In this document: positions 2,269-60,198 of the stretch, piece after piece
Layout: every line of letters begins with the position of its first letter
Numbering within the stretch: position 1 is the stretch's first letter
Position numbers and translations under genes: made by a program
The notes under the pieces: generated by a model
The model's database searches: none
Told to the model about the DNA's origin: nothing
What the model saw: only the letters and a program-made list of their open reading frames with translations
NCBI GenBank assembly: GCA_030691735.1
Contig: JAUYDS010000079.1
Coordinates: 905-64,904 of the forward strand
DNA: 64,000 nucleotides
From: Candidatus Aminicenantes bacterium
GTDB taxonomy: Bacteria; Acidobacteriota; Aminicenantia; Aminicenantales; UBA4085
Reading direction: 5' to 3'

Positions 2269-5200
2269 TTGGGATCTCGAGGACTATTACGCGTCGCGGT
2301 GGCGCAAGCCTTGAAAGCGCTTTTCCGCTTGTTCGGCAGCCGCGCTCCGCATCCGGCTGAGAAGCCCCTGCGCGACGAACTGCTGAGCATCGAAAGACTG
2401 GAAGAGAGGGCGAGAGCGCTCGCGGCCGGGTTCACGCTCGACCCGAATCCCCGCCGCGCGGCGCGGAACGTCCTGCCGCGCTTCGAGGACAACGCCCGCG
2501 TCCTTCGCGAGGCATACATCACCATGGCCGACGATGTGCACCGGGGGGAGTTCGTCACCCCCGCGGCGGAATGGCTCCTCGACAACTTCCATCTCGTGGC
2601 GTCCGAGGTCCTCGCCGTGCGCCGGAACCTCCCGCCGGGCTACTATCGCGGGTTGCCCAAACTCGCTTTGCGGGAGCTCGCGGGCCACGCGCGCGTCTAT
2701 GCCCTGGCCGAAGAGATCATCCGCCACAGCGACAGCCGCTTGGACCGCCAGCAGCTGGTGCGCTTCATGAACAGCTTCCAGGCCGTGGCTCCGCTCACGA
2801 TCGGCGAGCTGTGGGCCTGGCCGAGCATGCTGAAGCTGGCCCTCATCGAGAACCTGAGGCGGCTCGCGGAGGAGACGCTCGAGGCCCGCGCGGCCGTCCT
2901 GGCGGCCGACGCCTACGTGGCGCGGGTCGACGACGCCGGGCAGGGGAAGCCGCCGCCGCTGCCAAAGCACCTCCACACCGGTTACGTCCTTCAGCTCCTC
3001 CAACGCCTGCGCGAGCACGGCCCTCGCCTTTCCGCCGTCCGCGCCGCCGTCGATACGCACCTCTCCGCCCAACACATGGCCTCTGAGGACGCGATTCGGA
3101 GCGAGCATCAGCGCCAAGCCGCGGCCCAGGTCTCGGTGGCCAACGTCATCACCAGCCTCCGTCTCTGCTCCGCGCTCGACTGGAGCCAGTCCTTCGAGGC
3201 CGTCAGCCTGGTCGAGCGCGTGTTGCAGCGCGACCCGGCCGGGGCTTATGGGAGCATGGACTTCCTGAGCCGCGACCGCTACCGCCAGGCCGTGGAGGAG
3301 CTATCCGGGCCCACCGGAGAGGCGCAGTTGGACGTGGCTCTGCGAGCTATTGAGCGCGCTCGCCGGGCCGTGGAGAGCGGACAGGCGGCGGATCGCGCCG
3401 CCCACGTCGGCCACTACCTCATCGGCAAGGGCCGCCCCGACCTCGAGACCGACGTCGCCTTTCGACCCCGCTTCGGCCGGCGGGTGCGGCGTTTCGTCTT
3501 CGCCCATGCGACCGCCGTCTACCTCGGATCGATCGGGCTCCTGACGGCCCTCCTGCTCGGCCTCGGGCTCGCCTACCTCCATGATCAGCGCTCATCGCTC
3601 GGGGTTCGGGCCGCAGCGGCGCTGCTCCTGTTGCTTCCGGCCAGCCAGGTGGCGATCGCCTTCGTGCAGCGCCTGGTTGCTCGTTGGGCACCGCCGCAAC
3701 GCCTCCCCCGCCTCGAATTCCCTGCGGGAATCCCCGACAACGCGCGAACCATGGTGGTCGTGCCCACGCTGCTGACGAGCGTGCCCGCCGTGGCCCGCCT
3801 TATCGAGCACATCGAGGTGCTGGCTCTCGGAAACCTCGATCCGCGCATCCACTTCGCGATCCTCAGCGACTTCGTCGACGCCCCCGCGCGCGAGATGCCC
3901 GAGGACGAGCCGATCCTCTCCGCCGCCCGGGCGGGGATCGATGCCCTGAACGCGCACTTCGGTGAAGGGTATACGGACCGGTTCTTCCTGTTCCATCGCC
4001 TGCGCCAGTGGAACCCGGGAGAGAGCGTCTGGATGGGCTGGGAGCGCAAGCGTGGAAAACTCGAGGAATGGAACCGCCTTCTACGCGGGGCCACGGACAC
4101 GAGCTTCTCCGTGCAGGTCGGCGACGTGGGGATCCTCCCCGGCGTGCGCTACTGCCTCACTCTCGACTCCGACACCCGCCTGCCGCGGGACGCCGCGAAG
4201 AAGCTCGTCGGCATCATCGCCCATCCTTTGAACCGCCCCCGCTTCGACGTCCGCCTCGGCCGCGTCACCGAGGGCTATGGGATCCTGCAGCCCCGGGTCA
4301 GCGTGACCATGGCCAGCGCCGCCGGCTCACTCTTCGCCCGCCTCTACGCCGGCCACACCGGAGTCGATCCCTACACCACCGCTGTTTCGGACACCTATCA
4401 GGACCTGTTCGGCGAGGGGATCTTCACGGGCAAGGGGCTCTACGACGTGGACGCCTTCATGGCCGCCCTCGAGGGGCGCGTGCCCGAGAACGCCCTTCTC
4501 TCGCATGACCTCTTCGAAGGGGTCTACGCCCGCACGGCGCTCGTCACGGACGTGGAGGTGGTGGACGACTATCCCGCGAGCGTCCTCGCCCATGCGCGGC
4601 GCCAGCACCGCTGGGTTCGGGGCGATTGGCAGATCCTCCGCTGGCTGTTCCCTTGGGTTCCAACCCGCTCCGGCCTGAAGCGCAACCGGCTGCCCCTCAT
4701 CTCGCGCTGGAAGATCTTCGACAACCTGAGGCGCAGCCTCGTCCCCCCCTCGACCGTCGCCCTGCTCCTTCTGGCCTGGGCGATCCTGCCGGGAAGCCCG
4801 GCGGTCTGGACGGCCGCCATCCTGGCCGCCATGGCCTTTCCCCTTTATCCGCTGCTCCTGGAGGCCGCCAGAGGTCCCAGGCCGCAACAGCCGTGGCTGG
4901 TGTTCCTCCGCGCCGCTTGGAAAGATGGGAAGACCGTGCTCGCTCAGGTATCGCTGCAGCTCACCTTCCTGGCCAGCCAGGCTTACGAGAGGACCCACGC
5001 GATCGTGCTGACCCTCGTCCGTCTCGCGGCGACCCAGCGCCGCCTGCTGGAGTGGGAGACGGCCGCGGCCAGCGAAACCCGAGGGGCCGGCAAGGCAAGG
5101 CGAGCGAGCGCACGGGTGTTTCTGGTAGAGATGATCGCGAGCCCGCTGGTCGCATCAAGCGGCCTCCTCCTGGTCTTGCTGGCGCGCCCGGGCGCGCTCC

Positions 5201-8200
5201 TCACGGCCATCCCGGTCCTGGCTTTGTGGGCGGCCGCGCCGCTCGTCGCATATGCGCTGAGCCGGCCCGTGGTACCGCGACGTGTCGAGCTGGGGGAAGA
5301 GGACCGCTGGTTCCTCCGTCTCATTGCCCGCAACACCTGGCGATACTTCGAGGCGTTCATGGGCCCCGAAGACCACGGCTTGCCCGCGGACAATTTCCAG
5401 GAGACGCCGGAACCCCGGATCTCCCACCGGACGTCGCCCACGAACATCGGCATGGGGCTGCTCGCCACCCTGGCCGCTCACGATCTCGGCTTCATCCGGA
5501 CGGACGAGCTTGCCTCCAGGATCGACGCCACGCTGACCACGATGGAAGGCCTCGAACACTTCGACGGTCACCTGCTCAACTGGTACGACACGCAGAGCCT
5601 GGCGCCGCTCCTGCCGGCTTACGTGTCCACCGTCGACAGCGGCAACCTCGCGGGCGCGCTCATGACCCTGGCGGAAGGGCTGCGCCAGGCGAGCCGGCAA
5701 CCGCCGCCCACGGCCGAGCCGGCAGTCAAGGGACGAGCCTTCGCGGCGGCAGTCAAGGGACGAGCCTTCGCGGCGGAAGTGGACCCCCGGGCAAAGCCCG
5801 GGGCACTCACCCGCGATGTATATACGCGGCTGAGTACGGCGGAAGCGGATCCCCAGACAAAGCCTGCCCTCATTCGCTTCGCGAATGAGGACTGCAAAGC
5901 CCGGGGCCCGGCCGCCGCCCCGGCCGCCGTCGATCTCTCCCAACGCCTCCTTGACCTGGCGGGCCGCGCCGCCCGGTTCGCGGACGGGATGAGCTTCCGG
6001 TTCCTCTACGACCCGCAGCGCCGGATCCTCTCCATCGGCTATCGTCTCGCCGACGCCGAGGGGCCGGGCCGGCTGGATGCTTCCTACTATGACCTCCTGG
6101 CCTCGGAATCGCGGCTGACGAGTTTCATCGGCATCGCCAAGGGCGACCTCCCCGAAACGCACTGGTTCCACCTGGGACGGCTCATCACCGCCGTGGACGG
6201 GACGCCCACCCTCCTGTCTTGGGGCGCCACCCTGTTCGAGTACTTGATGCCGCTCCTCTTCATGAAGAGCTTTCCGGAAACACTCCTCAACCAGACATGC
6301 CGGATGGCCGTGCGGCGGCAGATCGAGTACGCGACGGATCGCGCCGTGCCCTGGGGGATCTCGGAGTCCGCCTACAACCTCGTGGACCGGCACGACAACT
6401 ATCAGTACAAGGCCTTCGGCATCCCCGGCCTCGGCCTGAAGCGCGGCCTGGGCGACGAGCTGGTGGTCGCACCCTACGCCACCGCGCTCGCCGCCGGGCT
6501 CGAACCAACGAAGGCCGCCCGCAATCTGCGGCGCCTGGCCGGGGAAGGTCTCGAAGGCGCCTACGGCTACTACGAGGCCATCGATTACACGCATGGGAAG
6601 ACCGACGAGCCCGAAAGCGCCGGGAGAAGAGCGGGCCTCCCCCGGGGAACGGTGGTGCGTGCCTTCATGGCCCATCACCAGGGGATGACTCTCGTGTCCC
6701 TTGCCAACGTTCTCCTCGGCGATCCGATGGTGAAACGCTTTCATGCCGACCCGCGCGTGCAGGCCACGGAGCTGCTGTTGCAGGAGCAGGTACCGCGCCT
6801 GGTGCCCATCACCCAGCCGCGACCGGTCGAAGAGACCCGCGTGGCCGGCCCGCTGCCCGCGCTGGCCATTCGCCGCTTCTGGTCGCCGCATACGCTGTTC
6901 CCTCATGCGCAGTTCCTGTCCAACGGCAACTACACCGCCGTCGTGACGAATGCGGGAGGGGGCGCCAGCTTCTGTCGAGGCCGCGCGGTCACAAGGCACC
7001 GGGAGGATCCGACCCGCGACCCGGGGAGCCAGTTCCTCTATCTGCGCGACGTGCGGAGCGGCTCGGTGTGGTCAGCAACTTTCCACCCCACCGCCAAGGA
7101 GCCGGAGGAGTACCTGGTCTCGTTCCTCGCGGAGAAGGCGACCTTTCGCCGCCGGGACGACGACATCGCCGTCCAGCTCGACATCGCCGTCTCGAACCAG
7201 GACGACGTTGAAGTGCGGCGCCTGGCGGTGACCAACCACAGCGATCGTCCCCGCGAGATCGAGATCACGAGCTTTGCCGAGATCGTCCTCGCCCCGCCGG
7301 CCGACGACCTGGCCCACCCGGCCTTCGGCAAGCTGTTCGTCGAGACGGAATACCTTCCCGAGAGCGCCGCCCTCCTCTGCCATCGCCGAGCGCGCGCCCC
7401 GGACGAGCCCGGGGCGTGGGCGATTCACGTCCTGAGCCTCGAAGGACGGAAGCAGGGGCCGGTGGAATGGGAGACCGACCGGGCGCGCTTCCTGGGTCGC
7501 GGCCGCGGTCCCGAGAACCCCCAGGCCCTCGACGGACGCTCCCTGTCCGGCACGACCGGGTTCGTACTCGACCCCGTCGTCAGCCTCCGGCAGCGCATTC
7601 GCCTCGCGCCGGGCGGCTTCATTAAGCTGTCTTTCGCCACGGGTATGGCGTCCTCCCGGGAGACGGCCCTGGCTCTCGCCCGGCGCTACCACGAGCCGAG
7701 CGCCGCGGCGCGAACCTTCGCCCTCGCCTTCGCCCATACGCAGAGCGGCCTCCGCCACCTTGGCATCTCGAGCGAACAAGCCTTGCTCTTCGAACGCCTG
7801 GCCTCGCGGGTGCTGTATACCGACGGATCGCTCCGCGCGAGCCCGGAGCTTCTGGCCCGCAACACCCTCGGCCAGGAAGGCCTCTGGCCGCACGGCATCT
7901 CGGGCGATCTCCCCATCCTCCTGGTGCGGGTCGTCGAGGAGGACGACCTGCCGCTGGTGCGCCAGGTCCTGCAGGCGCAGGAGTACTGGCGGCTCAAGGG
8001 GTTGAACGCCGACGTCGTGATCCTCAACGAGCACCCCGTGAGCTATCTCGACGAGATGCACGCGCTGCTCGTGGCCCTCCTCGACAATGGACCCTGGAGG
8101 ACCTGGAAGCACCGGCCCGGCGGGGCTTACCTGCTCCGTGGGGACCGCATGGCTGAAGCCGAGCGCATCCTCCTCGCGGGCGTGGCGCGCGCCGTCCTGA

Positions 8201-10791
8201 GCGGCGAGCGGGGAGATCTGGCCAACCAACTCGACTGGCTCGATCCCGAGTGGCCGGAGCCGGAGGAATTCGCGCCCTCCGCGGAGTCGAGCTCAGCCGC
8301 CGCGTCGCCGGCGCAGGTGGCCGTGCCTCCGCTCGCCCTGGCCAACGGCATGGGCGGCTTCGCCGACGACGGGCGCGACTACGTGGTCGTCCTTGAAGCG
8401 GCCCAGGAGACGCCCCTGCCTTGGGCCAACGTCATCGCCAACCCCGCGTTCGGGACCGTGATCACGGCCTCAGGGTCGGCCTACACCTGGTCGGAGAACA
8501 GCCGCGAGAACCGCCTCACGCCTTTCGCGAACGACCCCGTGACCGACCCCACGGCCGAGGCGCTCTTCATCCGCGACGATGAGACCGGAGAGACCTGGTC
8601 CCCCACGCCGGGCCCGATGCCCCGCACGGGCGGGGACGGTCGCTTCGTGATTCGGCATTCCGCCGGGCTGACTCGTTTCGCTCGCGTAGCGCACGGCCTG
8701 CGCCAAGACCTCGACGTATTCGTAGACGCGAAGGACCCGGTGAAATTCTCACTGCTCACGCTTACGAACGAAAGCGGAAGGGCGCGTCGCCTGAGCGTGT
8801 TCGCCTACAACGAGTGGGTGCTGGGGCCGCCGCGGGCGGGCCAGAGCACGCACGTGGTGACCGAGCTCGACTCCGCGACCGGAGCGGTCCTGGCCAGGAA
8901 TCCCTACAACCAAGAGTTCGCGGGGCGCGTGGCTTTCGCCCACGCGAGCGAAGGGCTGCGCTCGGCAACGGGAGATCGCTTGTCGTTCCTGGGTCGCAAC
9001 GGTTCCCTGGCGCAACCGGCGGCGCTCCGCCGTGAAGCCCTGTCGGGCCGCTTCGGAGCGGGGCTCGATCCCTGCGCCGCGCTGCACGTCTCCGTCACTC
9101 TGATCCCGGGGGAGACGCGCCTCCTTGTGTTCCTGGTTGGGCAGGGGAAGGATGGGAATGAGGCCCGCGAGCTTCTGGGCCGGCATGGTCGCGTGGACGC
9201 CGCGGAAATCGCCCGGGAGGCCGTGCGCCGGAGCTGGGACGGCATCCTCGACACGGTCCAGGTCCGTACGCCGGACGACTCCTTCGATCTGTTGATGAAC
9301 CGCTGGCTGCTCTATCAGGACGTGAGCTGCCGGCTGTGGGCCCGGTCCGCTTACCACCAGCCGAGCGGCGCCTTCGGGTTCCGCGACCAGCTTCAGGACG
9401 TCATGGCTTTGACGCTGGCCCGGCCGGATCTCATCAGAGAACACCTGTTGCGAGCAGCCGGCCGGCAATTCCTCGAAGGCGACGTCCAGCACTGGTGGCA
9501 CGAGCGGAGCGGCCGGGGCACCCGCACGCGCTGTTCCGACGACCTGTTATGGCTTCCCCACGCGGTAGCGCACTACGTCCGGACGACGGGAGACGCGGGC
9601 GTCCTCGATGAGCCGGCGCCCTTCCTGGAGGCCCCGCCGCTCGCCCCGGAAACGCAGGACGCCTACGTTCAGCCCCGCATCTCGACCGAAAAGAGTCCGA
9701 TCTTCGAGCATTGCCTGCGCGCCATCGACCGTGGACTGACCGCGGGCGCCCACGGCCTTCCCCTTATGGGGAGCGGGGACTGGAACGACGGCATGAACCG
9801 CGTGGGACGGGAAGGGCGCGGGGAGAGCGCCTGGGTGGGCTTCTTCCTCCACGTGGTCCTGAGCGAGTTCGCGCCGCTCTGCGAAGCTCGGGGGGACCAG
9901 GCCCGGGCCGAGCGCTACCGCGGCGAGGCCCGCCGGCTCGGCAGCATGCTGGAGCAGACCTGGGACGGCGAGTGGTACCGGCGCGGCTACTACGACGACG
10001 GCAAGCCTCTAGGCTCGGCCCAGAACGACGAGTGCCGGATCGACGCCACCGTACAGTCCTGGGCGGCGCTCTCGGGCGCGGTTCCCGTGCGCTACGCGGA
10101 ACGCGCCATGGACGCTGTCCGCACCCACCTGGTTCGGCGCGGACCTCAGGTCGTACTGCTGCTCACCCCGCCCTTCGACGAATCCATCCAGGATCCGGGG
10201 TACATCAAGGGCTATCCGCCCGGCGTGCGTGAGAACGGCGGCCAATACACCCACGGGGCTCTCTGGGTCGTCATGGCCATGGCCCGGCTGGGCAGCGGCG
10301 ACGAGGCGGTGGAGCTCTTCCACATGCTCAATCCCGTCAACCATACCAGGACCGCGGCCGGTGTCGGGCGCTACATGGCCGAGCCCTACGTCATCGCCGG
10401 AGACGTCCACGCCGACCCGGCACACGCCGGGCGTGGCGGCTGGACGTGGTACACCGGCTCCGCGGGCTTGATGTACCGCGCGGGCCTCGAGAGCATCCTC
10501 GGGCTCCGGCGCCGGGGCTCGACCTTCGAGATGGACCCCTGCATCCCGTCATCCTGGCTTGACTACGCGATCGTCTGGCGCTTCGGCCGGACGCGCTACG
10601 AGATCGCGGTCTCGAACCCGGAGCGCCGCTGCCGAGGGATCGCGGAGGCGGAACTGGATGGCGCGCCGGTCGACCCCCGCTCCATCCCTCTCGCCGATGA
10701 CGGCGGCACGCACCAAGTCCGGCTGGTGCTGGGAGACCCAAAGCGGCCCGTCCCGCCCGTTGCCGACCCGGGTGCCATCGCTTCTGCTTGA
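2269..10791 (+). CDS. ndvB: Cyclic beta-1,2-glucan synthase (Cgs/NdvB/ChvB family; GT84 domain plus C-terminal GH94 phosphorylase-like domain); the start is a TTG
   Basis: The 2840-aa product has TM clusters around aa 400-470 and 830-1000. A GT-A signature DSDT (nt about 4165) and [10 protein letters not shown] flank the glycosyltransferase domain. The C-terminal region is GH94-like ([27 protein letters not shown]). The size and architecture match Brucella/Rhizobium Cgs. Confidence 0.8.
5723..5930 (+). repeat. Composite, nested copy of the GC-rich palindromic mini-element, inserted in-frame in cgs (copy A)
   Basis: It contains a 27-bp tandem duplication of CAGTCAAGGGACGAGCCTTCGCGGCGG, the core hairpin GACCCCCGGGCAAAGCCCGGGG, a second hairpin module and a repeated GCCCGGGGCCCGGCCGCC tail. 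It is translated as [28 protein letters not shown]. Confidence 0.8.
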
Positions 10792-10955
10792 GTCTCAAAC
10801 GCGCCTGGGCCGCGGGCTCGGCTCACCCAGCATAGCCAGCAGGTTGATCTCTTCGCTTTAGCCCATGGCGGAGTTGAGGATCCAGTTCTGCGAACAGCCC
10901 GTCGTCGCCTCCGACCGGACCGCCGCCTTGACTTTCAACGAGCGTCTTTGACAAA

Positions 10956-13704: not shown

Positions 13705-13730
13705 GAGGGACGCCCTCCGAACCCCCTCTC

Positions 13731-16115
<2,385 letters not shown>

Positions 16116-16128
16116 GTTCTCCTCCGCT

Positions 16129-16581
16129 TCACTCCTCGTTTTTCTGGATCTTGACGATGATGTCCCGTTCCCTGGCCGGCTTCGGTTTTTTCAGATGGAC
16201 GGTCAAAATGCCGTTCTCGAGATAGGCCGTAGCCCCGTCCATATCCACGGCGCACGGGAGCGGCACGGTCCTCTGGAATTTCCCGTACTCGCGCTCCAGG
16301 CGCAGATATCGGGTCCCCGCCTTGACGGGGGTCTCGATCTTCATTCCCCGGATCTCGATCCGGCTCAGCCGGAGGGAGATGACGATCTCCCGCGCCGAAA
16401 GCCCCGGGACCTCGACCTCGACGACGATATCGTCGTCTTTCTCGTAAACGTCGACGAGCGGGAGCCATCCGCCCTGGAGCTCGGGGAATTCGGGCCGCTC
16501 GGTCATCGCCTCGTTCATCAGGCGCCGGATGACGCTCTCGAACTTGGCCACACGGGTCACGGGATGAATGCGTTTGACCAT
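16129..16581 (-). CDS. Hsp20/alpha-crystallin family small heat-shock protein
   Basis: The 150-aa product has an alpha-crystallin domain (VDVYEKDDDIVVEVEVPG...ENGILTVHLKK). It lies immediately upstream of lon on the same strand. Confidence 0.85.
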   Translation of the reverse strand: MVKRIHPVTRVAKFESVIRRLMNEAMTERPEFPELQGGWLPLVDVYEKDDDIVVEVEVPGLSAREIVISLRLSRIEIRGMKIETPVKAGTRYLRLEREYGKFQRTVPLPCAVDMDGATAYLENGILTVHLKKPKPARERDIIVKIQKNEE

Positions 16582-16666
16582 GTCCTTAATCCGAGATCAC
16601 TCCTTCTTCGATCTTTCGCAACTCAACCTTATTTAATCCCAAGAAGCGTTTTTGTCAAATCCGGAA

Positions 16667-16767
16667 GTCAAGGGACGAGCCTTCGGCTCGCCACTCGCCC
16701 GTGGCTTTTAACCACGGGCGAGTACGGCGGAAAGGACCCCCGGGCAAGCCCGGGGCCCCGGCCGCCG
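16667..16767 (+). repeat. GC-rich palindromic mini-element, long form with the extra hairpin module (copy B), intergenic
   Basis: The sequence is GTCAAGGGACGAGCCTTCG + GCTCGCCACTCGCCCGTGGCTTTTAACCACGGGCGAGTA + CGGCGGAAAGGACCCCCGGGCAAGCCCGGGGCCCCGGCCGCCG. Confidence 0.8.
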
Positions 16768-16789
16768 AGAAGGGATCCGGTCCCCCGCC

Positions 16790-17245
16790 CTATTTTTCTT
16801 TGAGGAGGTTCTCCAGTTCCTGTTTGAACTCGTGGACGTCCCGGAACTCCCGATAGACCGAGGCGAATCGGACGTAGGCGACCTTATCCAGGGCCTTGAG
16901 CCTGTCCATCACGAGCTGACCGATCTCCGCCGCCTTCATCTCTTTCTCCGGACGCTCCTGGAGCTTGGCTTCGATCTCCTCGATGATCTCCTCGAGCTTG
17001 CTGACGGCGATGGGCCGCTTTTCGATGGCTTTGAGCATCCCCCGCAGGAGCTTCTGACGGTCGAAAAGCTGCCGCGAGCCGTCCTTCTTGACGATCATGT
17101 AGGGGATCTCTTCGATCTTTTCGTATGTCGTGAACCGCCTTTCGCAGGCGAGGCATTCCCGCCGCCTCCTGATGGAGAGCCCTTTCTTGCTCTCCCGGGA
17201 ATCGATGACTTTGCTCTCCAGATGACCGCAGAAAGGACACTTCAT
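16790..17245 (-). CDS. nrdR: Transcriptional repressor NrdR (151 aa; the longer tool ORF N-extension is spurious)
   Basis: The product has the N-terminal zinc ribbon [42 protein letters not shown] and an ATP-cone. The true start is the ATG at 17245. Confidence 0.9.
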
Positions 17246-18276
17246 GATTCGGCCGACTCCCCGAGCTTTTTCAATTGAAACAACGTCAATCCCTCTTTCC
17301 ATAATATAACAAAACCGACCAGACATGTCATCACCAGCTGGACGGCATGGACGGCGACGGTCAGGCTGAAGGCCTGGTTGGGATCGATCTTGAAGAGGGC
17401 GGTCAGGCCGAGCTGGCTGAAGGAATGGAACCCGCCGATCATGCCCGGCGTCGGGATGGAAGCCCCGATCATCGTCAGGAAGATATAGGGAATGAGGAGG
17501 AAAAAATAAGGCAGCGAAACCCGGTAAGCCTGAAAGAAGACCCAGTACCAGAACATGATGCCCAGCCAAACGACGAAGGACAGGCCGAGGTAGGTCAAGA
17601 GGTTGCCCAGGGAATGAAAGAACTTGAGCCCGTCGATGAACTCATGGAGAAGCTTCAGGATCCTCCGGCTCAACGTCTCGGAGAGAGGTTTCAGAAGGCG
17701 GGCCGTGATGGCCAGCGCCTTCTCCTTGAAGAAGTAAAAGAGGAGGCTGACGACGAGCAGGAGCGAGGCGAACCCCACCCCTACGATCCCCCACAGATAG
17801 AGCTTGGAGTAGGTCTCTGCCTGAAGGTGCAATTTCGACTCGTAGAGCGGCCGGGCCAGGAGGAAAACGCCGAGGAGAGAGCACATGGTAAACATGTCGA
17901 AGATCCGCTCGACAATCACCGTGCCCAGGGTGAACCCGGCCCGAACCCCTTCCTTACGGGCCACATAGAGAGGCTTGACGATCTCCCCCAGGCGCCCCGG
18001 GAGAAGATAAGTCACGGTGAAGCCGATCGCGTTGCCGGCGAACAGGTTGTAGAACTTGACGTCCTTTTTTTCGTGGATCAGGAGGTATTTCCAGCGGTAG
18101 GCGCGGGTCACAAGGTGGATGGGCACCAACAACAGGACCAGGACGAAGATCCCTAAGTTCGCGTGGGTCAGGAAGCGCCAGACGGCTCCCCAATCCTTGA
18201 CGCTTTTGACGAAGAAAAAGAGCAAGACGGCCGTCAAAAGAAGAACCAGCGTGACGCGGACCCACGTTTTCTTCAT
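17242..18276 (-). CDS. Flippase-like/UPF0104 (lysylphosphatidylglycerol synthase TM-region family) membrane protein
   Basis: The product has 8 or more TM helices. The motif [17 protein letters not shown] is characteristic of PF03706. Confidence 0.6.
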
Positions 18277-18361: not shown

Positions 18362-18432
18362 TGGGAAGTCGTCCAACGGCAGGACTCATGACTCTGGATC
18401 ATGAAATCAAGGTTCGAATCCTTGCTTCCCAG
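18362..18432 (+). tRNA. tRNA-Gln (anticodon CTG), CCA not encoded
   Basis: The acceptor stem TGGGAAG/CTTCCCA is a perfect 7 bp. The D-stem is GTCC/GGAC, the anticodon stem CATGA/TCATG with loop CTCTGGA (U33, anticodon CUG), and the T-arm CAAGG-TTCGAAT-CCTTG. The discriminator is G. Confidence 0.8.
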
Positions 18433-35589: not shown

Positions 35590-36200
35590 AGAAAAAAGGA
35601 AGTCAATGACCCCGCGGCAAGCCGCGGGGCATCAAGAGCGCAGCTTCAAAGCCAGCTGCGCAGGCCCGTGCTCCAATTCCCGGTGGCTAATGATATATTT
35701 TCGTATCACATCACTCGTCATCCGGTCTCCGACCGTCCTGGCAAAATAGCCGTCCTCCCATAGCTCCCCGCCCCAGAGTCTCTTCTTCAGTCCCGGGTAC
35801 TCGCGAAACAGCCCCCGCCCACCCAGACTCTTTATAATTCGGACCGCCTCCCCAATCGACCGCGATGGCGGGATCGATACCAGCAGATGAATGTGATCCT
35901 CCATGAGCTCCATCTCTTCAATCTCGATATCGTAGGCTTCGCATATCTCACCGATCATCTGTTTCGCTCGTTCCCGGACATCTTCCCGCTCAAAGATCTT
36001 CTTTCGATACTTGGGGCACCAGACCAGATGGTAGGACGTGTCGTAGACCGAATGACTCGTTCGTCGGAGCGTCACCCCTGTAATTTATCATACCCCCGAG
36101 CACGGGCCTAGCTGGATAAGGGGGACTTTCCGGTCCCCCTTATAACCCCCTCGGAACAGCATTCTTCCCCGCGGCAAGCCGCGGGGCATGCTGCAAAGGG
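35590..36200 (-). mobile_element. IS200/IS605-family insertion sequence (tnpA only), apparently intact
   Basis: The tnpA ORF is flanked on both sides by the same subterminal hairpin CCCCGCGGCAAGCCGCGGGGCAT (at about 35606 and about 36165). No tnpB is present. Confidence 0.85.
35632..36075 (-). CDS. tnpA: IS200/IS605 Y1 (HUH) transposase TnpA, GTG start
   Basis: The 147-aa product has the HuH motif EDHIHLLVSIPP and a Tyr-containing C-terminus. It is typical of IS200 TnpA. Confidence 0.9.
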   Translation of the reverse strand: MTLRRTSHSVYDTSYHLVWCPKYRKKIFEREDVRERAKQMIGEICEAYDIEIEEMELMEDHIHLLVSIPPSRSIGEAVRIIKSLGGRGLFREYPGLKKRLWGGELWEDGYFARTVGDRMTSDVIRKYIISHRELEHGPAQLALKLRS

Positions 36201-36243
36201 GTTCGTCAAGGGCCTTTTGGGGGAACTCCTCATTCCTCTTCTT

Positions 36244-47352: not shown

Positions 47353-47458
47353 GTCAAGGGACGAGCCTTCGGCTCGCCACTCGCCCGTGGCTTGTATCCA
47401 CGGGCGAGTACGGCGGAAGTGGACCCCCGGGCAATGCCCGGGGCCCCGGCCGCCGTGG
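47353..47458 (+). repeat. GC-rich palindromic mini-element, long form (copy C), filling the thiolase/Mo-hydroxylase intergenic gap
   Basis: It is near-identical to copy B, including the CACTCGCCCGTGG...CCACGGGCGAGTA hairpin module. Confidence 0.8.
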
Positions 47459-47468
47459 AGAAATAAAA

Positions 47469-54169: not shown

Positions 54170-55480
54170 ATGAAGCCGACCTATAAAACCGAGCCGCTCC
54201 GATGCTGGGCCAAGGCCAAGGAGATCCGCCAAGATTACTATAAGAATTACGCCCTGGCCCATGAGAAGGGCGGCCTGCGCTGGGCCGGGGGAGCGTGGTC
54301 GTTCGACGCCATCCCCGCAGGCCTCGGCGATGACGTCTACCCCCTGACGGGCGAGCCGTACGCGGCCGCGATCGCCTGGGACAAGGAATTCGCCCTCCAG
54401 TGCCACGAGGCGGTCGAAAAAGCCGGATACGCCCGCGATCTATGCTCCTACATGCGCAACTACTGGGGGTCGATCATCCTCAATAAATATGTCTTCGGCG
54501 GAGAATTTCCGAAGCCGGACTTCATCTGGCAAGATCATATCTGTTGCTCTCATGCCAAATGGTATCAAGTGGTCCGGGATCTGGAAGGGAAGGATATCCC
54601 GATGTACTGCCTCGACGTCAGCGTCGGCCCTTACGAGGAGCTCACGGACAACCGGCTCGAATACGTCGTCGGCCAGATGCACGACGGGATCGCCTGGCTG
54701 GAGAAGGTGACCGGCCGGCGCTTCGATGACGAAAAGCTCATCCGGGCCGTGTCCAACCATTGCCGCTCCACCGCCCTCTGGGCCGAGGTCTGCGCTCTGA
54801 ACAAAGCCATCCCCGCTCCGCTGGACGAGAAGACGATGTATTCGCTCTATGTCCTCGGAACCCTGCAGAAGAGCAGCGGCATCGTAGCGGACTTTACCGA
54901 GGAGCTCCGGGACGAAGTCAAGGATCGGGTCGCCAGAGGGATCGCCGCGGTTCCCAACGAACGGTGCCGGGTCATGTCTGACACCCAGCCTCCCTGGGCC
55001 TTCTTGAAGATCTTCCGATACCTGGAGCAATACGGCTGCGTCTCGGTCGGCTCCCTCTATACGTTCGGCCTGATCGGGCAATGGGAGGTCAAGGCCGACG
55101 GGACCTGGGGCGCCCGGACGACGCCGGAGCAGCAGGGAATCGTGATCCGGGACCGGGATCAGGCTCTTCGAATCCTGGCCGACTGGGAATTGAAAAAACC
55201 GGAATGGCAGCATTTTTATTCTCCCCAAGCCAAAAGCGAGATGATGATCCGGATCGCCAAGGAATGGACGCTCGACGGCGTCCTCCTCCATTACAACCGG
55301 GGCTGCGAAGGCTTGAGCCTGGGAATCGCCGAAAACCGGCTGGCCATGATCAAGGCGGGCTACCCGGTCATCGTTTTCGAGGGCAATATGGGGGACGAGA
55401 GGGAGTTCGACGAAATCCAGACTCTGAAACGGATCGACGCTTTTATGGAAAGCCTGGGGTTCGAAAAGGATTCCCGATGA
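54170..55480 (+). CDS. Class I benzoyl-CoA reductase family subunit (BzdO/BcrB-like)
   Basis: It belongs to the HgdA/BcrB family (436 aa) with conserved Cys residues. It directly follows the BzdN-like gene. Confidence 0.7.
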
Positions 55481-55529
55481 CTCATCGCCGGGAGCGAGGA
55501 GGCGGGCCGGGAAAGTCTTGCGGGCCAAC

Positions 55530-55597
55530 GTCAAGGGACGAGCCTTCGCGGCGGAAGTGGACCCCCGGGCAAAGCCCGGGGCCCCGGCCGCCGTGGC
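55530..55597 (+). repeat. GC-rich palindromic mini-element, short form (copy D), upstream of the ATPase gene
   Basis: GTCAAGGGACGAGCCTTCGCGGCGGAAGTGGACCCCCGGGCAAAGCCCGGGGCCCCGGCCGCCGTGG. Confidence 0.8.
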
Positions 55598-55634
55598 CCC
55601 GGCCGCCGCTGCCCCGGATGGACTGGAGGAAGGC

Positions 55635-56414
55635 ATGAATGTCGCCGGAGTGGATTGCGGGGCGAAGTCGGCCAAGGTTCTCATCCTGAGGGACGGGGAG
55701 GTCTTGGCTAGAAGTGCGGTCCTCAGCGGATTCGATCCGAAGGCCGCGGCGGCCCAGGCCTTGGACGAGGCCTTGATACAGGCCGGACTCTCGAGGAGCG
55801 ACCTGGCCCATGTGACGGCCACCGGAACAGGGAAGAACGAGGTGGATTTCGCCTCCTCCTCGATCACCGAGGTCGGCGCCGATGCCCGGGCCGCAAACGC
55901 CCTGTTTCCGGCCGCCCGGACCGTGATCGACATCGGGGCGGAGGAAGGACGGGCGATCCGGATCAGCCCGCAGGGAAAGGTGATCGATTTCGCCATCAAC
56001 GAGAAGTGCGCCGCCGGAGCCGGCACGTTCACCGAAACCATGGCCAGGACGCTCGAGGTCGCCGTGGAAGACATGGGCCCGCTCTCTCTCAAGTCTCAGA
56101 ACGCCGTCCCGATGAACGCCCAATGCGCCGTCTTCGCCGAGTCCGAGGTGGTCAGCCTCATCCACGCCAAGCATTCCAAGGAGGATATCGCCCGGGCGGT
56201 TCACGACGCCATCGCGGACAGGATCGCGTCCATGGCTCGGAAGATCGGGATCGAGAAGGATATCGTCCTCGTCGGCGGGGTGGCAAAGAACGTGGGCTTC
56301 GTGACCTCCTTGAAACGAAATCTGAAGGAAGAGCTGTTCATCCCCCCTTACCCCGAATATTCCTGCGCCCTGGGAGCCGCCCTCACGGCCGCCGAACGGG
56401 CCAAAGGAGTCTGA
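55635..56414 (+). CDS. BadF/BadG/BcrA/BcrD-type ATPase (benzoyl-CoA reductase electron-activating subunit, BzdP/Q-like)
   Basis: An ATG at 55635 has a GGAGGA RBS. The motifs GVDCGAKSAKVLIL, AINEKCAAGAGTF and LVGGVAKNVGFV match the acetate/sugar-kinase ATPase fold. The tool ORF start at the TTG 55518 inside the repeat was rejected. Confidence 0.75.
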   Translation: MNVAGVDCGAKSAKVLILRDGEVLARSAVLSGFDPKAAAAQALDEALIQAGLSRSDLAHVTATGTGKNEVDFASSSITEVGADARAANALFPAARTVIDIGAEEGRAIRISPQGKVIDFAINEKCAAGAGTFTETMARTLEVAVEDMGPLSLKSQNAVPMNAQCAVFAESEVVSLIHAKHSKEDIARAVHDAIADRIASMARKIGIEKDIVLVGGVAKNVGFVTSLKRNLKEELFIPPYPEYSCALGAALTAAERAKGV

Positions 56415-56415
56415 C

Positions 56416-57288
56416 ATGGCCACAGAATATTGGCGCTGGCCCGAATCCCGGTGGACCTCGCCGGAGATCGATTGGAAAGCCGGCCGCATCGTCACCGCCG
56501 GAATCGACGTCGGTTCGGTGAGCTCCCAGGCCGTGGTCATGGTCGACGGCGCGCTGTTCTGCTACGGCAGCCTGCGGACCGGGTCTAACAGCCCGGAAAG
56601 CGCCCAACGGGCGATGGATTTTGCCCTGGCCGAAACCGGCTTGGTCCTTGCCGACATCCACTATATCGTCGGGACGGGATACGGCCGGGTCAATATCTCC
56701 TTCGCCCAGAGGGCCCTGACCGAGATCGCCTGCCATGCCCGGGGCGCGAATTTCATGTACGGGCCGACGGTCAAGACCATCCTGGACATGGGCGGGCAGG
56801 ATTGCAAGGCCATCCGCTGCGACGCCAAGGGGAAAGTGACCAACTTCCTGATGAACGACAAATGCGCGGCCGGGACGGGCCGGGGGATGGAAGTGTTTGC
56901 CGACCTTTTGTCCGTCCCCATCGCCGACATGGGGCGTATGTCGTTCGAGGTGGAGGCCGAGCCCGAGCCCGTCAGCTCCACCTGCGTCGTGTTCGCCAAA
57001 TCCGAGGCCGTGGGCCTCTTGAGGAAAGGCTGGCCGAAGGAAAAGGTCCTGGCCGCTTATTCCTCGGCCATGGCCCACCGCGTCGTCGAGCTTTTGCAGC
57101 GCATCCAGGTAGAAGAGGATTTCGCCGTCACCGGCGGCATCGCCAAGAACGAAGGCGTGGTCAAGAGAATCGAAAAGGAGCTGAAAATAAAGGCCCTCGA
57201 ACCCAAGTTCGACACCCAGATCGCGGGCGCCCTGGGCGGCGCGTTATTCGCTAAGGCCCTCGTCGAGAAGGACAGGGGGCTCCGCTAG
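56416..57288 (+). CDS. Second BadF/BadG/BcrA/BcrD-type ATPase subunit
   Basis: The motifs GIDVGSVSSQAVVM, MNDKCAAGTGRGME and VTGGIAKNEGVV are present. It is distinct from the upstream ATPase, consistent with a heterodimeric BCR alpha/delta pair. Confidence 0.75.
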   Translation: MATEYWRWPESRWTSPEIDWKAGRIVTAGIDVGSVSSQAVVMVDGALFCYGSLRTGSNSPESAQRAMDFALAETGLVLADIHYIVGTGYGRVNISFAQRALTEIACHARGANFMYGPTVKTILDMGGQDCKAIRCDAKGKVTNFLMNDKCAAGTGRGMEVFADLLSVPIADMGRMSFEVEAEPEPVSSTCVVFAKSEAVGLLRKGWPKEKVLAAYSSAMAHRVVELLQRIQVEEDFAVTGGIAKNEGVVKRIEKELKIKALEPKFDTQIAGALGGALFAKALVEKDRGLR

Positions 57289-57289
57289 C

Positions 57290-57577
57290 ATGCTGGCCCA
57301 CTACGGATATAAGGACGGCTCGGGAGAGTATTTCATCGTCGTCGACACGGACAAGTGCGACGGATGCGGCCGCTGCGTCTCCGCCTGTCCCTACGGAGTT
57401 TTCGAAATCGGCGAGGACGAAAACGACCCCTTCCGCGAGACGGTCGTGGTCAAAGTCTCCGAATCCCACCGTAAGAAAATCAAATACAGCTGCGCGCCCT
57501 GCAAACCCGTCTCCGGAAAAAAATCCCTGCCCTGCCTCGAAAGCTGTGCTCCGGGCGCGATCGGTCACTCCTGGTGA
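57290..57577 (+). CDS. 2x[4Fe-4S] ferredoxin of the benzoyl-CoA reductase type (Fdx/BzdM-like)
   Basis: The 95-aa product has the Cys patterns CDGCGRCVSACP and the atypical CAPC-x10-C-x3-C. Confidence 0.75.
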   Translation: MLAHYGYKDGSGEYFIVVDTDKCDGCGRCVSACPYGVFEIGEDENDPFRETVVVKVSESHRKKIKYSCAPCKPVSGKKSLPCLESCAPGAIGHSW

Positions 57578-60198
57578 GAGGACAGAACCAAGTGGCCTCC
57601 CGATCGCCGGGATCGGGCCGGAAATTCCTCCTGGACGGGAAGGCCGTCGAGGCCGCGGAGGGCCGGACCATCCTGCAGGCCGCTCTCGCCGCCGGGATCT
57701 ATATTCCCCATCTCTGCCATCATCCGGACCTGCCGCCCTTCGAGACGATTCCCCCCCTGGAGACATGCTACCGGGGTTCCGAGGTTTTCCGTTCGGCAGG
57801 GCGCGGTCACACTTATACGGGCTGCGGGCTCTGCTTGGTCAAGATCTCCGGTCGCGAGGAGCCGGTCCTCTCCTGCACGCACGTCGCCGAGGACGGGATC
57901 GAGGTTGTGACCTCGACCCCGGAGATCGCGTCCGCTCGTCAGAAAAAACTGGCCGCGCTGATGATCCGCCATCCGCACGCTTGTCTGACCTGCGCCCAGC
58001 GGGAAGGATGCAGCTTGACCCAGTGCTCGTCCAACGTCCCCGAGGCGGAGAGGTGCTGTCCCCGGTTCGATCATTGTGAGCTGAGAAGCCTGGCCGAGTA
58101 CGTCGGCCTCAGCCAGGACCTTTCCCGATATCGTTTCCGCGGTGAGGTCGCGGAAATGCAAGGGCCCCTCTTTATCCGGGACTACAACCTCTGCGTCGGC
58201 TGCCTGCGGTGCGTCCGGGTCTGCGAATCCGTGATCGGCGCCAAGGCCTTGGGGTACGTATCGGCCGCGGACGGAGAGATTATGGTGGGCGCCTCGAAGC
58301 CTTCCTGGGATGAGGCGGGGTGCCGGTCCTGCGGCGCGTGCGTCGAGGTTTGCCCGACCGGCGCGCTGCGCGATAAAAACCTCAAGCCCGGCGACCGGAA
58401 AGCGTCTCTAATCGCCTGCGTCTCCGGCTGCCCCTTGGCCATGGATGTCCCCTCCTATCTGAACTTCATCGCTCAGGGCAGACCGGCAGAAGCGGCGGCC
58501 GTCATCCGGCGGAGCGTTCCACTCGCCCTGACGCTTGGATACATCTGCTCCCATCCCTGCATGACCGAATGCCGCCGGGGGAAGATCGATGAGTCCATCG
58601 CCATCTGCGAGCTCAAGAGGTTCGCCCTGGAGCAAGCAGACTCGCCGGTCAAGGGACGAGCCTTCGCGACGGAAGTGGACCCCCGGGCAAAGCCCGGGGC
58701 CCCGGCCGCCGTGGAAAAGGCGGAACGCAAGCCGACGGGAAAGAAGGTCGCCGTCATCGGAGGGGGACCGGCCGGCCTCGTGGCCGCTTCTTATCTGGCG
58801 AATGGCGGCCACTCCATCAAGGTCTTTGAAGCGAGTTCGGAGCCGGGAGGAATGCTGCGCTGGGCGATCCCCGAATACCGGCTCCCGCGGAGCGTCGTCG
58901 CTGGAGAGATCGAACTTGTCAAGGCTCAGGGGGTCGAGATTCTGACCGGGGCACGGGTTGACAGAGAGACGTTCCTCAGGGATTTCGGCCCCGGCTCCTG
59001 GGACGCGGTTTTTCTCGCGGTCGGCGCTCAGGAGAGCAGAGGGATCGACATCGAAGGTCAAGACCTGGAGGAAGTCGGTAAGGGGGTGGAGTTTCTCCGG
59101 GAGGCCAAAGCGGGAACGATCGAGAAAATCAGCGGAAGAGTCGTGGTCATCGGCGGGGGAAACGTCGCCCTGGACGCGGCCATGACGGCCCTCCGGCTCG
59201 GAGCTTCCACTGTCGAGCTGGCCTGCTTAGAAAGCCGGGACGAGATGCCGGCGTTCGCTTGGGATGTCCGGGAAGCCGAGGAGGACGGGGTAGTGCTGAA
59301 TCCAGGTTGGGGGCCCTCCCGGATCGTCGGACGGGAAGGCCGGGCCGCCGCGGTCGAGCTTATCGGTTGTGTTTCGGTCTTCGATGAACAAGGAAATTTC
59401 CGCCCGAAATTCGATCCCGCTCGACGGAAGACTCTCCCGGCCGATCGCGTCGTCTTGGCCGTCGGGCAGCGGCCCGATCTTTCGTTTCTTCCTCCGGATC
59501 TGGGAGTCCGGTTGACGAAGGCGGGGACAATCCAGGTCAGCCCCCTGAATCTCCAAACGAGCGTGCCTTGGATCTTCGCCGGAGGCGAGGTTACTCTCGG
59601 ACCGTCCTCGGCCGTGGAATCCATGGCCTTGGGACGGCAGGCCGCCTCGTCGATCGATCGTTTCTTGGGAGGTGAGGGGCTGGGCTCGGCGCCGAACGGG
59701 GCCGGGAAGGCCGGCCGGGGAGACCTGTGGCTGGGCCATGATCCCGGTTTCGGCTCGAGGCGCAGAGTGCCCAGCCGCCGCCTCCTTCGAGCGGAACGCC
59801 TGAAATCTTTCGACCTCGTCCAGGGAAGCTATGAGCCGGACGAGGCCCGCCGGGAAGCAGGCCGGTGCTTGAGGTGCGAACTCAGGTTCGCCCTTTCGCC
59901 CGTCTGCCTTCCTCCTGAAAAATGGATAGAGTTCCGCCTGGATTCGATGTCCGAGGTTCCCGAAGTGGAGGGCGTTTTTCAGCTTTCAGATGAGCGGAGA
60001 AACGTGATTTTCATCGCCGGAACGCCCAACCTCAGGCGGACCCTTCTCGAACACCTGTCCGCCGGTTCGGAAGCCCATTATTTTCTCTATGAAAAGAACC
60101 CGATGTTCACCAAAAGGGAAAGCGAATGGATTCAGCAGTTCCTTCAGAAACACGGCCGCCTTCCGCCGAAGAACGAAGAGGTCGACGAGTTGTTCTAG
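57574..60198 (+). CDS. Fused Fe-S / FAD-NAD(P)H oxidoreductase (NuoG-like 2Fe-2S and 4Fe-4S N-terminus, GltD/SudA-like C-terminus); candidate ferredoxin-regenerating BzdV-like enzyme; GTG start
   Basis: The N-terminus has 2Fe-2S fer2_4 (CHHPDL...CGLCLV) and several CxxCxxCxxxCP motifs. The C-terminus has KKVAVIGGGPAGLVAASYLA and a pyridine-nucleotide disulfide oxidoreductase fold. The linker contains repeat copy E in-frame. Confidence 0.7.
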   Translation: MRGQNQVASRSPGSGRKFLLDGKAVEAAEGRTILQAALAAGIYIPHLCHHPDLPPFETIPPLETCYRGSEVFRSAGRGHTYTGCGLCLVKISGREEPVLSCTHVAEDGIEVVTSTPEIASARQKKLAALMIRHPHACLTCAQREGCSLTQCSSNVPEAERCCPRFDHCELRSLAEYVGLSQDLSRYRFRGEVAEMQGPLFIRDYNLCVGCLRCVRVCESVIGAKALGYVSAADGEIMVGASKPSWDEAGCRSCGACVEVCPTGALRDKNLKPGDRKASLIACVSGCPLAMDVPSYLNFIAQGRPAEAAAVIRRSVPLALTLGYICSHPCMTECRRGKIDESIAICELKRFALEQADSPVKGRAFATEVDPRAKPGAPAAVEKAERKPTGKKVAVIGGGPAGLVAASYLANGGHSIKVFEASSEPGGMLRWAIPEYRLPRSVVAGEIELVKAQGVEILTGARVDRETFLRDFGPGSWDAVFLAVGAQESRGIDIEGQDLEEVGKGVEFLREAKAGTIEKISGRVVVIGGGNVALDAAMTALRLGASTVELACLESRDEMPAFAWDVREAEEDGVVLNPGWGPSRIVGREGRAAAVELIGCVSVFDEQGNFRPKFDPARRKTLPADRVVLAVGQRPDLSFLPPDLGVRLTKAGTIQVSPLNLQTSVPWIFAGGEVTLGPSSAVESMALGRQAASSIDRFLGGEGLGSAPNGAGKAGRGDLWLGHDPGFGSRRRVPSRRLLRAERLKSFDLVQGSYEPDEARREAGRCLRCELRFALSPVCLPPEKWIEFRLDSMSEVPEVEGVFQLSDERRNVIFIAGTPNLRRTLLEHLSAGSEAHYFLYEKNPMFTKRESEWIQQFLQKHGRLPPKNEEVDELF
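58648..58713 (+). repeat. GC-rich palindromic mini-element, short form (copy E), in-frame inside the BzdV-like gene
   Basis: GTCAAGGGACGAGCCTTCGCGACGGAAGTGGACCCCCGGGCAAAGCCCGGGGCCCCGGCCGCCGTGG is translated as [22 protein letters not shown]. Confidence 0.8.

Follow-up and report, generated by a model that had tools for sequence, protein, structure and literature searches.

Is the GC-rich palindromic repeat at positions 55530–55592 of a 64,000-nucleotide stretch from an Aminicenantes-type bacterium (contig JAUYDS010000079.1; the whole stretch is called the window below) a mobile element, and if so, by what chemistry does it move? The original prediction likened the repeat and its relatives in the window to Rickettsia palindromic elements (RPEs) or to a miniature inverted-repeat transposable element (MITE). 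The likeness to RPEs is borne out at the level of behaviour, in that the repeat is a dispersed, mobile, non-coding mini-element that sometimes lies in frame inside proteins. The account that we favour, with a probability of roughly 0.6, is that it is a non-autonomous IS200/IS605 ‘peel-and-paste’ element, similar to PATEs and moved in trans by a Y1 transposase. It is based on three features described below, namely a target on one side only, hairpins at the ends, and a fixed terminal pentanucleotide, which reads TTGAC on the other strand.

The 19-nucleotide head of the repeat, GTCAAGGGACGAGCCTTCG, has six exact copies in the window (starting at 5725, 5752, 16667, 47353, 55530 and 58648), all on the + strand, and these fall into the five loci originally predicted. 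With up to three mismatches allowed, seven matches to the head are found in the window against 0.06 expected from shuffles, and the core hairpin ACCCCCGGGC/GCCCGGGG is found four times against 0.03 expected; the fifth copy, at 16667, carries the same hairpin with a loop one base shorter, so that every copy has it, as had been proposed. The tail of the repeat is likewise over-represented. The spans first given for the five loci, as opposed to their positions, required correction; reading the loci together with the ends defined from empty sites gives 5725–5928, 16667–16766, 47353–47454, 55530–55592 and 58648–58710. The TGG that had been counted as the end of the unit belongs instead to the target motif, as the empty sites and flank counts indicate.

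The copy at 55530–55592 (+ strand) is a 63-nucleotide short form within the 155-nucleotide, non-coding spacer between the HGD-D gene (54170–55480) and a BcrAD_BadFG ATPase gene (ATG at 55636). Its head (55530–55548) is followed by an outer stem, CGGCGG (55549–55554) with CCGCCG (55588–55593), which encloses an internal GTGGA (55557–55561) and an inner hairpin, in which CCCCGGGC (55563–55570) pairs with GCCCGGGG (55574–55581). Directly 3′ of the element stands a pentanucleotide of the target type, GTGGC (55593–55597), after which part of the tail, CCCCGGCCGCCG, is repeated at 55596–55607. This copy had been taken for one of three in-frame coding copies, at a TTG-initiated N-terminus of the ATPase. 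However, the ATG at 55636 is preceded by a ribosome-binding site, GGAGGAAGG, and corresponds to residue 40 of the TTG-initiated open reading frame (ORF), whose BcrAD_BadFG domain begins at residue 44. With the domain starting four residues past the ATG, the TTG-initiated N-terminus is a mere ORF extension, and the copy is intergenic; the other two coding copies, in the cyclic β-1,2-glucan synthase gene (cgs) and in an Fe-S flavoprotein gene, stand.

Hairpin forms and genomic distribution

The repeat exists in two principal forms. The long form of 102 nucleotides is represented by the intergenic copy at 47353–47454 (+ strand), which has the stop codon of a thiolase gene (47332) on one side and a CO-dehydrogenase flavoprotein-type gene next, and is flanked by GTGGA (47455–47459). 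On either strand it folds as three hairpins (z-scores of −4.7 to −6.8): H1, GG-A-CGAGCC UUC GGCUCG-CC; H2, ACUCGCCCGUGG and CCACGGGCGAGU around a 7-nucleotide loop; and H3, an outer stem CGGCGG/CCGCCG around GGA-CCCCGGGC AAA GCCCGGGG-CCC. The short form lacks exactly 39 nucleotides, comprising the 3′ arm of H1 and the whole of H2, and thus keeps only H3. On the complementary strand (slash, element boundary), the long form reads TCSAC/GGCGGCCGG-[hairpin CCCCGGGC TTT GCCCGGGG]-GTCCAC, continues through hairpin H2, and ends with [hairpin GGCGAGCC GAA GGCTCGTCC]-C-TTGAC/, which places H3 at one end and H1 with C-TTGAC at the other. The terminal GTCAA/TTGAC is constant in the six window heads, in which it formed part of the search pattern; of six additional copies that lack the exact head, GTCAA is unchanged in three, altered in its first two bases in two, and replaced by GTCAG in one.

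A set of 35 long and 14 short copies shows near-invariant stems, with substitutions clustered in loops and linkers and with compensated stem variants such as CCCCAG...CTGGGG and CCCGGTC...GACCGGG. Larger composites carry a second H2′/H3′ unit (ACTCACCCGCG...GGATCCCCAGACAAAGCCTGGGG) nested after GCCCGGGGC. The composite junction is identical in six loci from different assemblies, which implies that the composite itself has spread. Some copies carry an extra small hairpin (CCCTCATCGCTTCGCGCATGAGG) in either orientation. At three pairs of orthologous filled sites (L010/L068, L055/L065 and L097/L163; flanks 86–96% identical), one sister genome has the long form and the other the short; the 39-nucleotide block differs without microhomology and the inner H3 differs as well. 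This exchange may have come about by deletion, by gene conversion from one copy to another, or by more than one insertion into the same place. Solo H1 hairpins, consisting of the head only, occur at L002 4389–4414, L043 1757–1782 and L074 156–181, just past stop codons or in short intergenic spacers, and may be remnants of the element; in the window, the place orthologous to the L002 site is occupied by an unrelated hairpin.

Exact matches to the head were found in at least 78 stretches of species-representative genomes, from 14 assemblies labelled mostly Candidatus Aminicenantes, Aminicenantales or Aminicenantia (the other labels being one Acidobacteria, one ‘bacterium’, three ‘uncultured Eubacteriales’ and one Spirochaetes), and in at least 120 stretches of JGI metagenome contigs; 2.9 million viral contigs gave no match. 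The family as sampled comprises more than 200 copies from at least 14 Aminicenantes metagenome-assembled genomes (MAGs) and from metagenomes, and, if the density of five loci per 64 kb is extrapolated, a genome would hold some hundreds of copies. The window itself comes from this lineage, as judged from the 97.5% identity of 6477–10859 to MAG CAZGJS01 and the 75–81% identity of 13729–18143 to an Aminicenantes MAG; the ‘aromatic degrader’ in which the family had been thought surprising is therefore not the relevant frame for the host. Synteny with the 97.5%-identical MAG contig (L073, from 3618 downward) stops about 70 nucleotides past the cgs stop codon (window 10859 onward); about 0.8 kb past the break, that MAG has a copy of the element with no counterpart at the same distance in the window.

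The surroundings of the copies bear on whether the repeat might be a functional structured RNA or cis-regulatory element (a terminator, an mRNA stabilizer or a small RNA) that is maintained by selection and is mobile only secondarily. Genes were called by a codon-usage score, as longest-ORF calling fails on GC-rich DNA. Of the 138 complete copies, 91 are outside any ORF and 19 (14%) are deep within long ORFs that have good coding scores; the other 28, close to an ORF end or within a weak ORF, are ambiguous. The very stable three-hairpin fold, the conserved stems with variable loops, the copies in operon spacers (thiolase/flavoprotein and HGD-D/ATPase), and a mild antisense excess between co-directional genes (18 versus 7) are all what a regulatory RNA might show. 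However, copies in both orientations are also found within genes, in convergent regions and in divergent promoter regions. No U-tract follows the hairpins, and presence or absence varies among near-identical sequences. A scan of the whole window against Rfam at the gathering score returned no family for the element, its sole match being a tRNA gene at 18362–18432, and a scan of the element alone at E ≤ 10 returned just sub-threshold generic hairpin matches. A transposase that recognizes hairpins would, moreover, also keep the stems conserved. We consider this alternative quite unlikely, and the data can be accounted for with no primary regulatory role.

The second intergenic long form, at 16667–16766 (+ strand), is 100 nucleotides long owing to two 1-nucleotide deletions and has an off-consensus flank, GAGAA. 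On one side of it is the stop codon of nrdR and on the other the promoter region of an Hsp20 gene; the two genes are on the − strand, and the orthologous spacer in MAG Chersky_507 (L002) is without it. A promoter-like TTGACA-N17-TAAATA stands upstream of the Hsp20 gene (16610–16655, − strand) and is kept in the L002 orthologue; the element is located directly upstream of its −35 box.

Empty sites and a one-sided target

Six insertion sites were found filled in one sequence and empty in an orthologous one, and the members of each pair differ by the element alone (in the empty junctions below, the slash marks the insertion point). They are L070 filled with L041 empty (flanks 92–96% identical; ...GCGG/GCCGAAGG), L072 with L053 (about 88%; ...GTCCC/GTCGGTT), L092, inside the leucyl-tRNA synthetase gene (LeuRS), with L042 (97.5%; /GTGGAAAAAG), L021 with L168 (about 84%; /GTCGAGG), L178 with L048 (about 88%; /GTGGG), and L035, inside a DPP-IV gene, with L020 (83%; protein identity over the whole ORF 76%), where exactly 21 codons are absent. 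None of the six pairs shows a target-site duplication. The same is apparent within the window, where all five loci start with GTC whereas the 3′ flanks of four of the five begin otherwise (GTG three times, GAG once), which excludes a duplicated target. Elements of the IS200/IS605 type, including their PATE derivatives, make no target duplication. Terminal inverted repeats are absent as well, since the start of the element, GTCAAGGGACGAGCC, and its reverse-complemented end, GGCGGCCGGGGCCCC, match no better than chance.

What the sites share lies on one side. Directly 3′ of 63 complete copies, the consensus GTSGA is formed by G in 61, T in 50, S in 56, G in 55 and A in 40, and an independent metagenome sample of 68 gives G68 T62 S54 G64 A49; the ten bases before the element show no conservation in the 63 copies. 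The strict form GT[CG][GA]A follows 30 of the 63, compared with a background of 0.005 per position. The pentanucleotide is already there in the empty sites (GTGGA, GTCGA, GTGGG, GTCGG and GCCGA), and GTSGA is accordingly the target and stands outside the element. In L052 and L021, two independent nested copies interrupt a short-form element at a point exactly 5′ of the GTGGA inside it. Hairpins are not enriched in the sequence that flanks the insertion sites.

This junction anatomy bears most directly on the proposal of a MITE moved by a DDE transposase, and on that of an element moved by another recombinase (IS110 family, tyrosine or serine). The repeat is small, non-coding and of high copy number, and the element and its 3′ flank each start with GT, which could be read as a 2-nucleotide core. 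In common with classical MITEs (Correia, ERIC, RUP and Nezha) it also occurs in operon spacers and makes occasional in-frame fusions with ORFs. In contrast to them, however, it has neither terminal inverted repeats nor target-site duplications, their two defining features; its target is one-sided, whereas IS110-type targets extend to both sides; and no such enzyme was seen near copies among the best 25 of 127 Pfam families of the neighbouring ORFs. The MITE assignment is thus largely refuted, and movement by any of these enzymes is very improbable.

Several further observations were made at the insertion sites. At seven loci, none of them in the window (L072 6674–6692, L029, L053, L071, L078, L093 and L134), there is another dispersed repeat, CCCCTGGGGAACCAGTCCC GTCGGTTCCCCCC..., with a hairpin after it, and its L072 copy has itself been invaded by the main element at GTCGG. 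In addition, at L058 3400–3445, L031 about 6920–6960 (− strand), L103 and L155, the element adjoins sequence that resembles the 3′ portion of a gene for a tRNA or tmRNA (GGTTCAAGTCCTCT...CGCCCACCA); L031 also has an apparently unbroken paralogue. A 94-nucleotide ‘tRNA-Ala’ called by ARAGORN over the element in L058, where Rfam is empty, is taken as an artefact of this tRNA-like 3′ fragment.

Insertions in protein-coding genes

The two coding copies of the window are real insertions relative to homologues. The copy at 58648–58710 (+ strand), a short form of 63 nucleotides or 21 codons, lies in frame in a multidomain 2Fe-2S/4Fe-4S/FAD oxidoreductase of the GltD-like type (874 residues; gene 57574–60198, + strand). 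It is placed in the linker between Fer4_20 (to residue 356) and the Rossmann fold (from residue 390), and its 3′ flank, GTGGA (58711–58715), is read as Val-Glu. Twelve homologues, including the closest (Aminicenantales, 60% identity), are without the 22 residues that precede the GxGxxG motif. The other copy, at 5725–5928 (+ strand), is a composite of 204 nucleotides or 68 codons, in frame in cgs (2269–10791, + strand; 2840 residues). It is made up of a partial head (5725–5751), a short-form head with the 5′ part of H3 (5752–5804), a nested H2′/H3′ unit from 5805, a small hairpin at about 5863–5898 and a doubled tail, and is flanked by GTCGA (5929–5933). The closest orthologues (84–85% identity) lack the region of about 80 residues, and distant homologues, including the solved Cgs structure, have unrelated sequence at this place. 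The comparison with orthologues that had been proposed for these two genes thus gave close homologues without inserts in both cases.

The gene cluster at 54170–60198, which holds two copies of the element, encodes an HGD-D-type dehydratase/reductase subunit, two BcrAD_BadFG ATPases and the large 2Fe-2S/4Fe-4S/FAD oxidoreductase, and looks like a benzoyl-CoA reductase or 2-hydroxyacyl-CoA dehydratase system.

Beyond the window, in-frame hosts include LeuRS (editing domain), the NAD-dependent DNA ligase LigA (adenylation domain, with a 60-residue composite), SecA, BamA, a NuoM/N-like subunit, DPP-IV, GH38 mannosidases, a histidine kinase and a methyltransferase; a peptide such as VKGRAFGSPLAR would be expected within LeuRS or LigA. 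Nearly all of the 17 deep-ORF hosts that were scanned have Pfam domains. A search with the 36-residue translation against 1.84 billion representative proteins, which was used to find hosts, gave 79 clusters, among them a YegS-type kinase, a Ser/Thr kinase and an α/β hydrolase. A separate search of a larger collection, which apparently reached only proteins of up to 165 residues, yielded 103 matching database proteins (P0241–P0343), 86 of them in the VKGRAF frame and 16 in the antisense frame. Nearly all are without a Pfam domain, those with a name are for the most part Aminicenantes entries called ‘hypothetical protein’, and most of the 103 look like annotation artefacts, ORFs called over intergenic copies.

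That a peptide (VKGRAF...) recurs in so many database proteins is the one point in favour of a conserved protein motif, the explanation that the original prediction had set against a mobile element. Two thirds of the copies are intergenic, however, and most of the peptide-bearing ‘proteins’ are the short hypothetical ORFs just mentioned. The closest orthologues of the hosts lack the peptide, the hosts are unrelated to one another (LeuRS, LigA, SecA, BamA, a kinase, hydrolases), and antisense copies encode a different peptide. Nor are substitutions clearly concentrated at third codon positions (31/43/54 over the three positions, a weak bias that is confounded by the structure). There is practically no chance that the repeat is a protein motif, and its status as a DNA-level element survives this comparison.

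The reading frame shared by the inserts can be traced to the target. In coding DNA, GTSGA is found in the phase GTS-GAN (Val-Asp/Glu) in 1148 of 1406 occurrences (82%), and the element, whether of 63 or 102 nucleotides, is free of stop codons in the frame so set. Together these two properties give insertion in frame with a shared reading, in which the encoded segment VKGRAF...PAA leads into a V-E or V-D that belongs to the host. All 11 deep sense copies and the cgs copy use the VKGRAF frame, a result compatible with target phase alone (0.82^12 = 0.09), and the length of deep coding copies is a multiple of three in all but two. The in-frame behaviour that had seemed special is therefore accounted for by the codon phase of a pentanucleotide. 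A common frame, as had been claimed for all the copies, applies to those in cgs and in the Fe-S flavoprotein and is meaningless for the intergenic ones at 16667, 47353 and 55530. For antisense copies, target phase likewise favours one frame (84%), but 4–5 of 7–8 deep copies use the minority frame, TAAGAPG.ARGSTSA..KARPLT; these small numbers suggest purifying selection against the Cys/Trp/Arg-rich antisense reading. An AlphaFold model of a host linker has a mean pLDDT of 61, with the insert below 50, and hints that the insert may be a disordered loop.

Probable IS200-type transposition and related palindromic elements

A motif scan for HUH/Tyr proteins identified a Y1 transposase gene in the window, tnpA of the IS200 type (35632–36075, − strand; Pfam Y1_Tnp, E = 2.5e-40), with an HIHLL motif and the catalytic-tyrosine region YIISH. 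It belongs to a complete IS200-type insertion sequence at 35602–36204 (− strand), whose left end is adjoined by TTGAC (36209–36205) and whose last five bases are again TTGAC (35606–35602). On its own strand, with slashes at the boundaries, the left end reads ...CCCTTGAC/GAACCCCTTTGCAGCAT-GCCCCGCGGC TTG CCGCGGGG-AAGAATGC and the right end TGAT-GCCCCGCGGC TTG CCGCGGGG-TCA-TTGAC/TTCC, so that identical hairpins, GCCCCGCGGC-TTG-CCGCGGGG, occupy both ends in direct orientation. This hairpin is close to the inner H3 of the repeat, which on that strand is GGCCCCGGGC TTT GCCCGGGGG. A related left end is found in L130; an exact database look-up of the window TnpA protein returned no record. The insertion sequence is located where gene orientation switches from − to +. 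At L046 3660–3843 (− strand), a non-coding multi-hairpin element of about 185 nucleotides has TTGAC in its flank and TTGAC at its end, with a first hairpin that resembles that of the window IS200, and is probably another PATE family of the same lineage.

In the published IS200/IS605 systems, insertion of IS608 takes place precisely 3′ of a TTAC that is retained in the left flank, the ends of IS608 carry subterminal imperfect palindromes, and ISDra2 integrates at TTGAT/G (slash, integration point) (PMC5934647). PATEs, non-autonomous derivatives of this family known for example from Geobacillus stearothermophilus and Haloquadratum (PMC10055086, PMC3119063), have transposon-adjacent and transposon-encoded motifs (PMC10055086). 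By analogy, we propose that a Y1 (HUH) transposase, for which the IS200 TnpA of the same window is the candidate, would act in trans on single-stranded DNA and make two cuts, one directly 3′ of the terminal TTGAC and the other directly 3′ of the TCSAC in the flank. The excised element would then be pasted 3′ of another TCSAC, with nothing duplicated. On the + strand of the repeat, it would end up directly 5′ of GTSGA, mostly read GTS-GAN, and insertions in genes would add 21 or 34 residues with the frame intact and would be expected to survive in loops and linkers. The involvement of a Y1 transposase as the mobilizing enzyme is inferred from these features.

Like PATEs, the repeat encodes no protein, has neither terminal inverted repeats nor target-site duplications, and leaves precise empty sites. 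Hairpins lie near both ends in the long form and near one end in the short form, and the repeat ends on one side with an apparently fixed pentanucleotide (TTGAC) while a flank pentanucleotide stands at the other (TCSAC). The same genome, in addition, carries an IS200 tnpA with TTGAC at both boundaries and a similar hairpin. It differs in that it is much shorter (63 or 102 nucleotides), strongly modular and nested, and is often found in frame in genes.

A number of observations weigh against a PATE-like, IS200/IS605-type mechanism. The ends of the element and of the local IS200 are similar, in pentanucleotide type and hairpin type, and not identical, and the targets, TCSAC for the element and TTGAC for the IS200, differ at positions 2–3. 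Only one tnpA was seen in the 1.3 Mb sampled around copies. No recurrent partner gene adjoins the copies: in a Pfam scan of 104 neighbouring ORFs, no family occurred more than twice, and no transposase was present among the best 25 of 127 families. A strong orientation bias towards the lagging-strand template would be expected and is not seen. Although the five window loci lie on one strand, as had been noted, this does not hold in general, where neighbouring pairs have the same orientation in 13 cases and the opposite in 7; and orientation is not associated with local GC skew (n = 78, p = 0.38; a weak test on 8-kb pieces) or with the strand of neighbouring genes. The short form is common despite its lack of the right-end hairpin H1, and the precise 39-nucleotide difference between the long and short forms, without microhomology, is not explained by the proposed mechanism. 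The left cleavage site would be only 9 nucleotides from the inner hairpin and right against the outer stem, closer than in IS608. Pairing of guide sequences as in IS608, assessed by eye only, gave no convincing complementarity.

Much of the same evidence could be read in terms of REP/BIME elements, hairpin modules that are spread by a domesticated transposase, RAYT, and partly kept for mRNA stabilization or termination. RAYTs are also Y1 HUH enzymes, and the target evidence fits them equally. The GC-rich hairpin modules are arranged in mosaics of variable combination (solo H1, short, long and composite forms), as in REP, BIME and REPIN sequences, and hundreds of copies are mostly extragenic, with some persisting at orthologous sites across species. 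A GT-containing motif precedes each main hairpin (GTCAA-G-H1 and GTGGA-C-inner H3); REPs carry a GTAG head, which these motifs recall. However, a RAYT flanked by inverted copies was not seen in the 1.3 Mb centred on copies, and the sole Y1 gene found is that of a classical IS200 with end hairpins in direct orientation. About 14% of copies are intragenic, so that a restriction to extragenic DNA does not hold. The repeat is an asymmetric element with defined termini, a one-sided target and precise empty sites, an arrangement better documented for IS200/IS605 derivatives. A REP/BIME-like origin is therefore an unlikely explanation, and IS200/IS605-type movement remains the account that we prefer.

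With respect to RPEs (Ogata et al. 2000 and 2002, as summarised in PMC10969869), the parallel is one of behaviour, and a relation in sequence is not expected. Both are dispersed palindromic repeats of about 100 nucleotides that occur in intergenic DNA as well as in frame in unrelated, often essential genes, to which they add a conserved peptide without inactivating them. The present repeat belongs to GC-rich genomes of Aminicenantes/Acidobacteriota, whereas RPEs belong to Rickettsia. Its intragenic share of about 14% is also smaller than that of RPEs, of which nearly half of the copies lie in genes, though only in three of ten RPE families (PMC10969869). For the present repeat one can name both a target pentanucleotide and a class of candidate enzyme, neither of which is given for RPEs in that review (PMC10969869). 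By this comparison, the repeat most resembles RPEs as an analogue in behaviour, and in its putative mechanism it appears closest to the PATEs of IS200/IS605.

By sequence, the family probably belongs to neither group and is new, as had been suspected. In keeping with the empty Rfam result, no paper was retrieved when the full text of the literature was searched for the head sequence, and the papers that pair ‘Aminicenantes’ with ‘repetitive’ do not describe the repeat.

A more far-reaching and more tentative possibility is that the repeat is an HUH transposon derivative built for life inside genes, in which the transposition chemistry itself writes 21- or 34-residue segments into proteins, including essential ones. 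The features that suggest it are the Val-Asp/Glu target, the unit lengths of 63, 102, 180 and 204 nucleotides, all divisible by three, and the stop-free peptide of small, loop-compatible residues. If this is true, it would be the first mechanistic model for ‘protein-coding palindromes’ of the RPE type and would represent a natural peptide-insertion system driven by transposition.

For the annotation of Aminicenantes genomes, the repeat appears to be a source of spurious short ORFs, and insertions in LeuRS, LigA, SecA and cgs alter protein lengths and may break MAG assemblies. Two of its traits are of use, the target that doubles as a Val-Asp/Glu codon pair and the recent presence/absence differences in essential genes, and the repeat could be used as a marker to tell strains apart in Aminicenantes populations. 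In sum, the RPE phenomenon, selfish palindromes in frame in essential genes, is extended to an unrelated, uncultured, GC-rich lineage, with a testable mechanism attached to it in the form of a pentanucleotide target on one side and a transposase of the IS200 type encoded by the same genome, and with the codon phase of that target as a simple reason for the common reading frame of the insertions.

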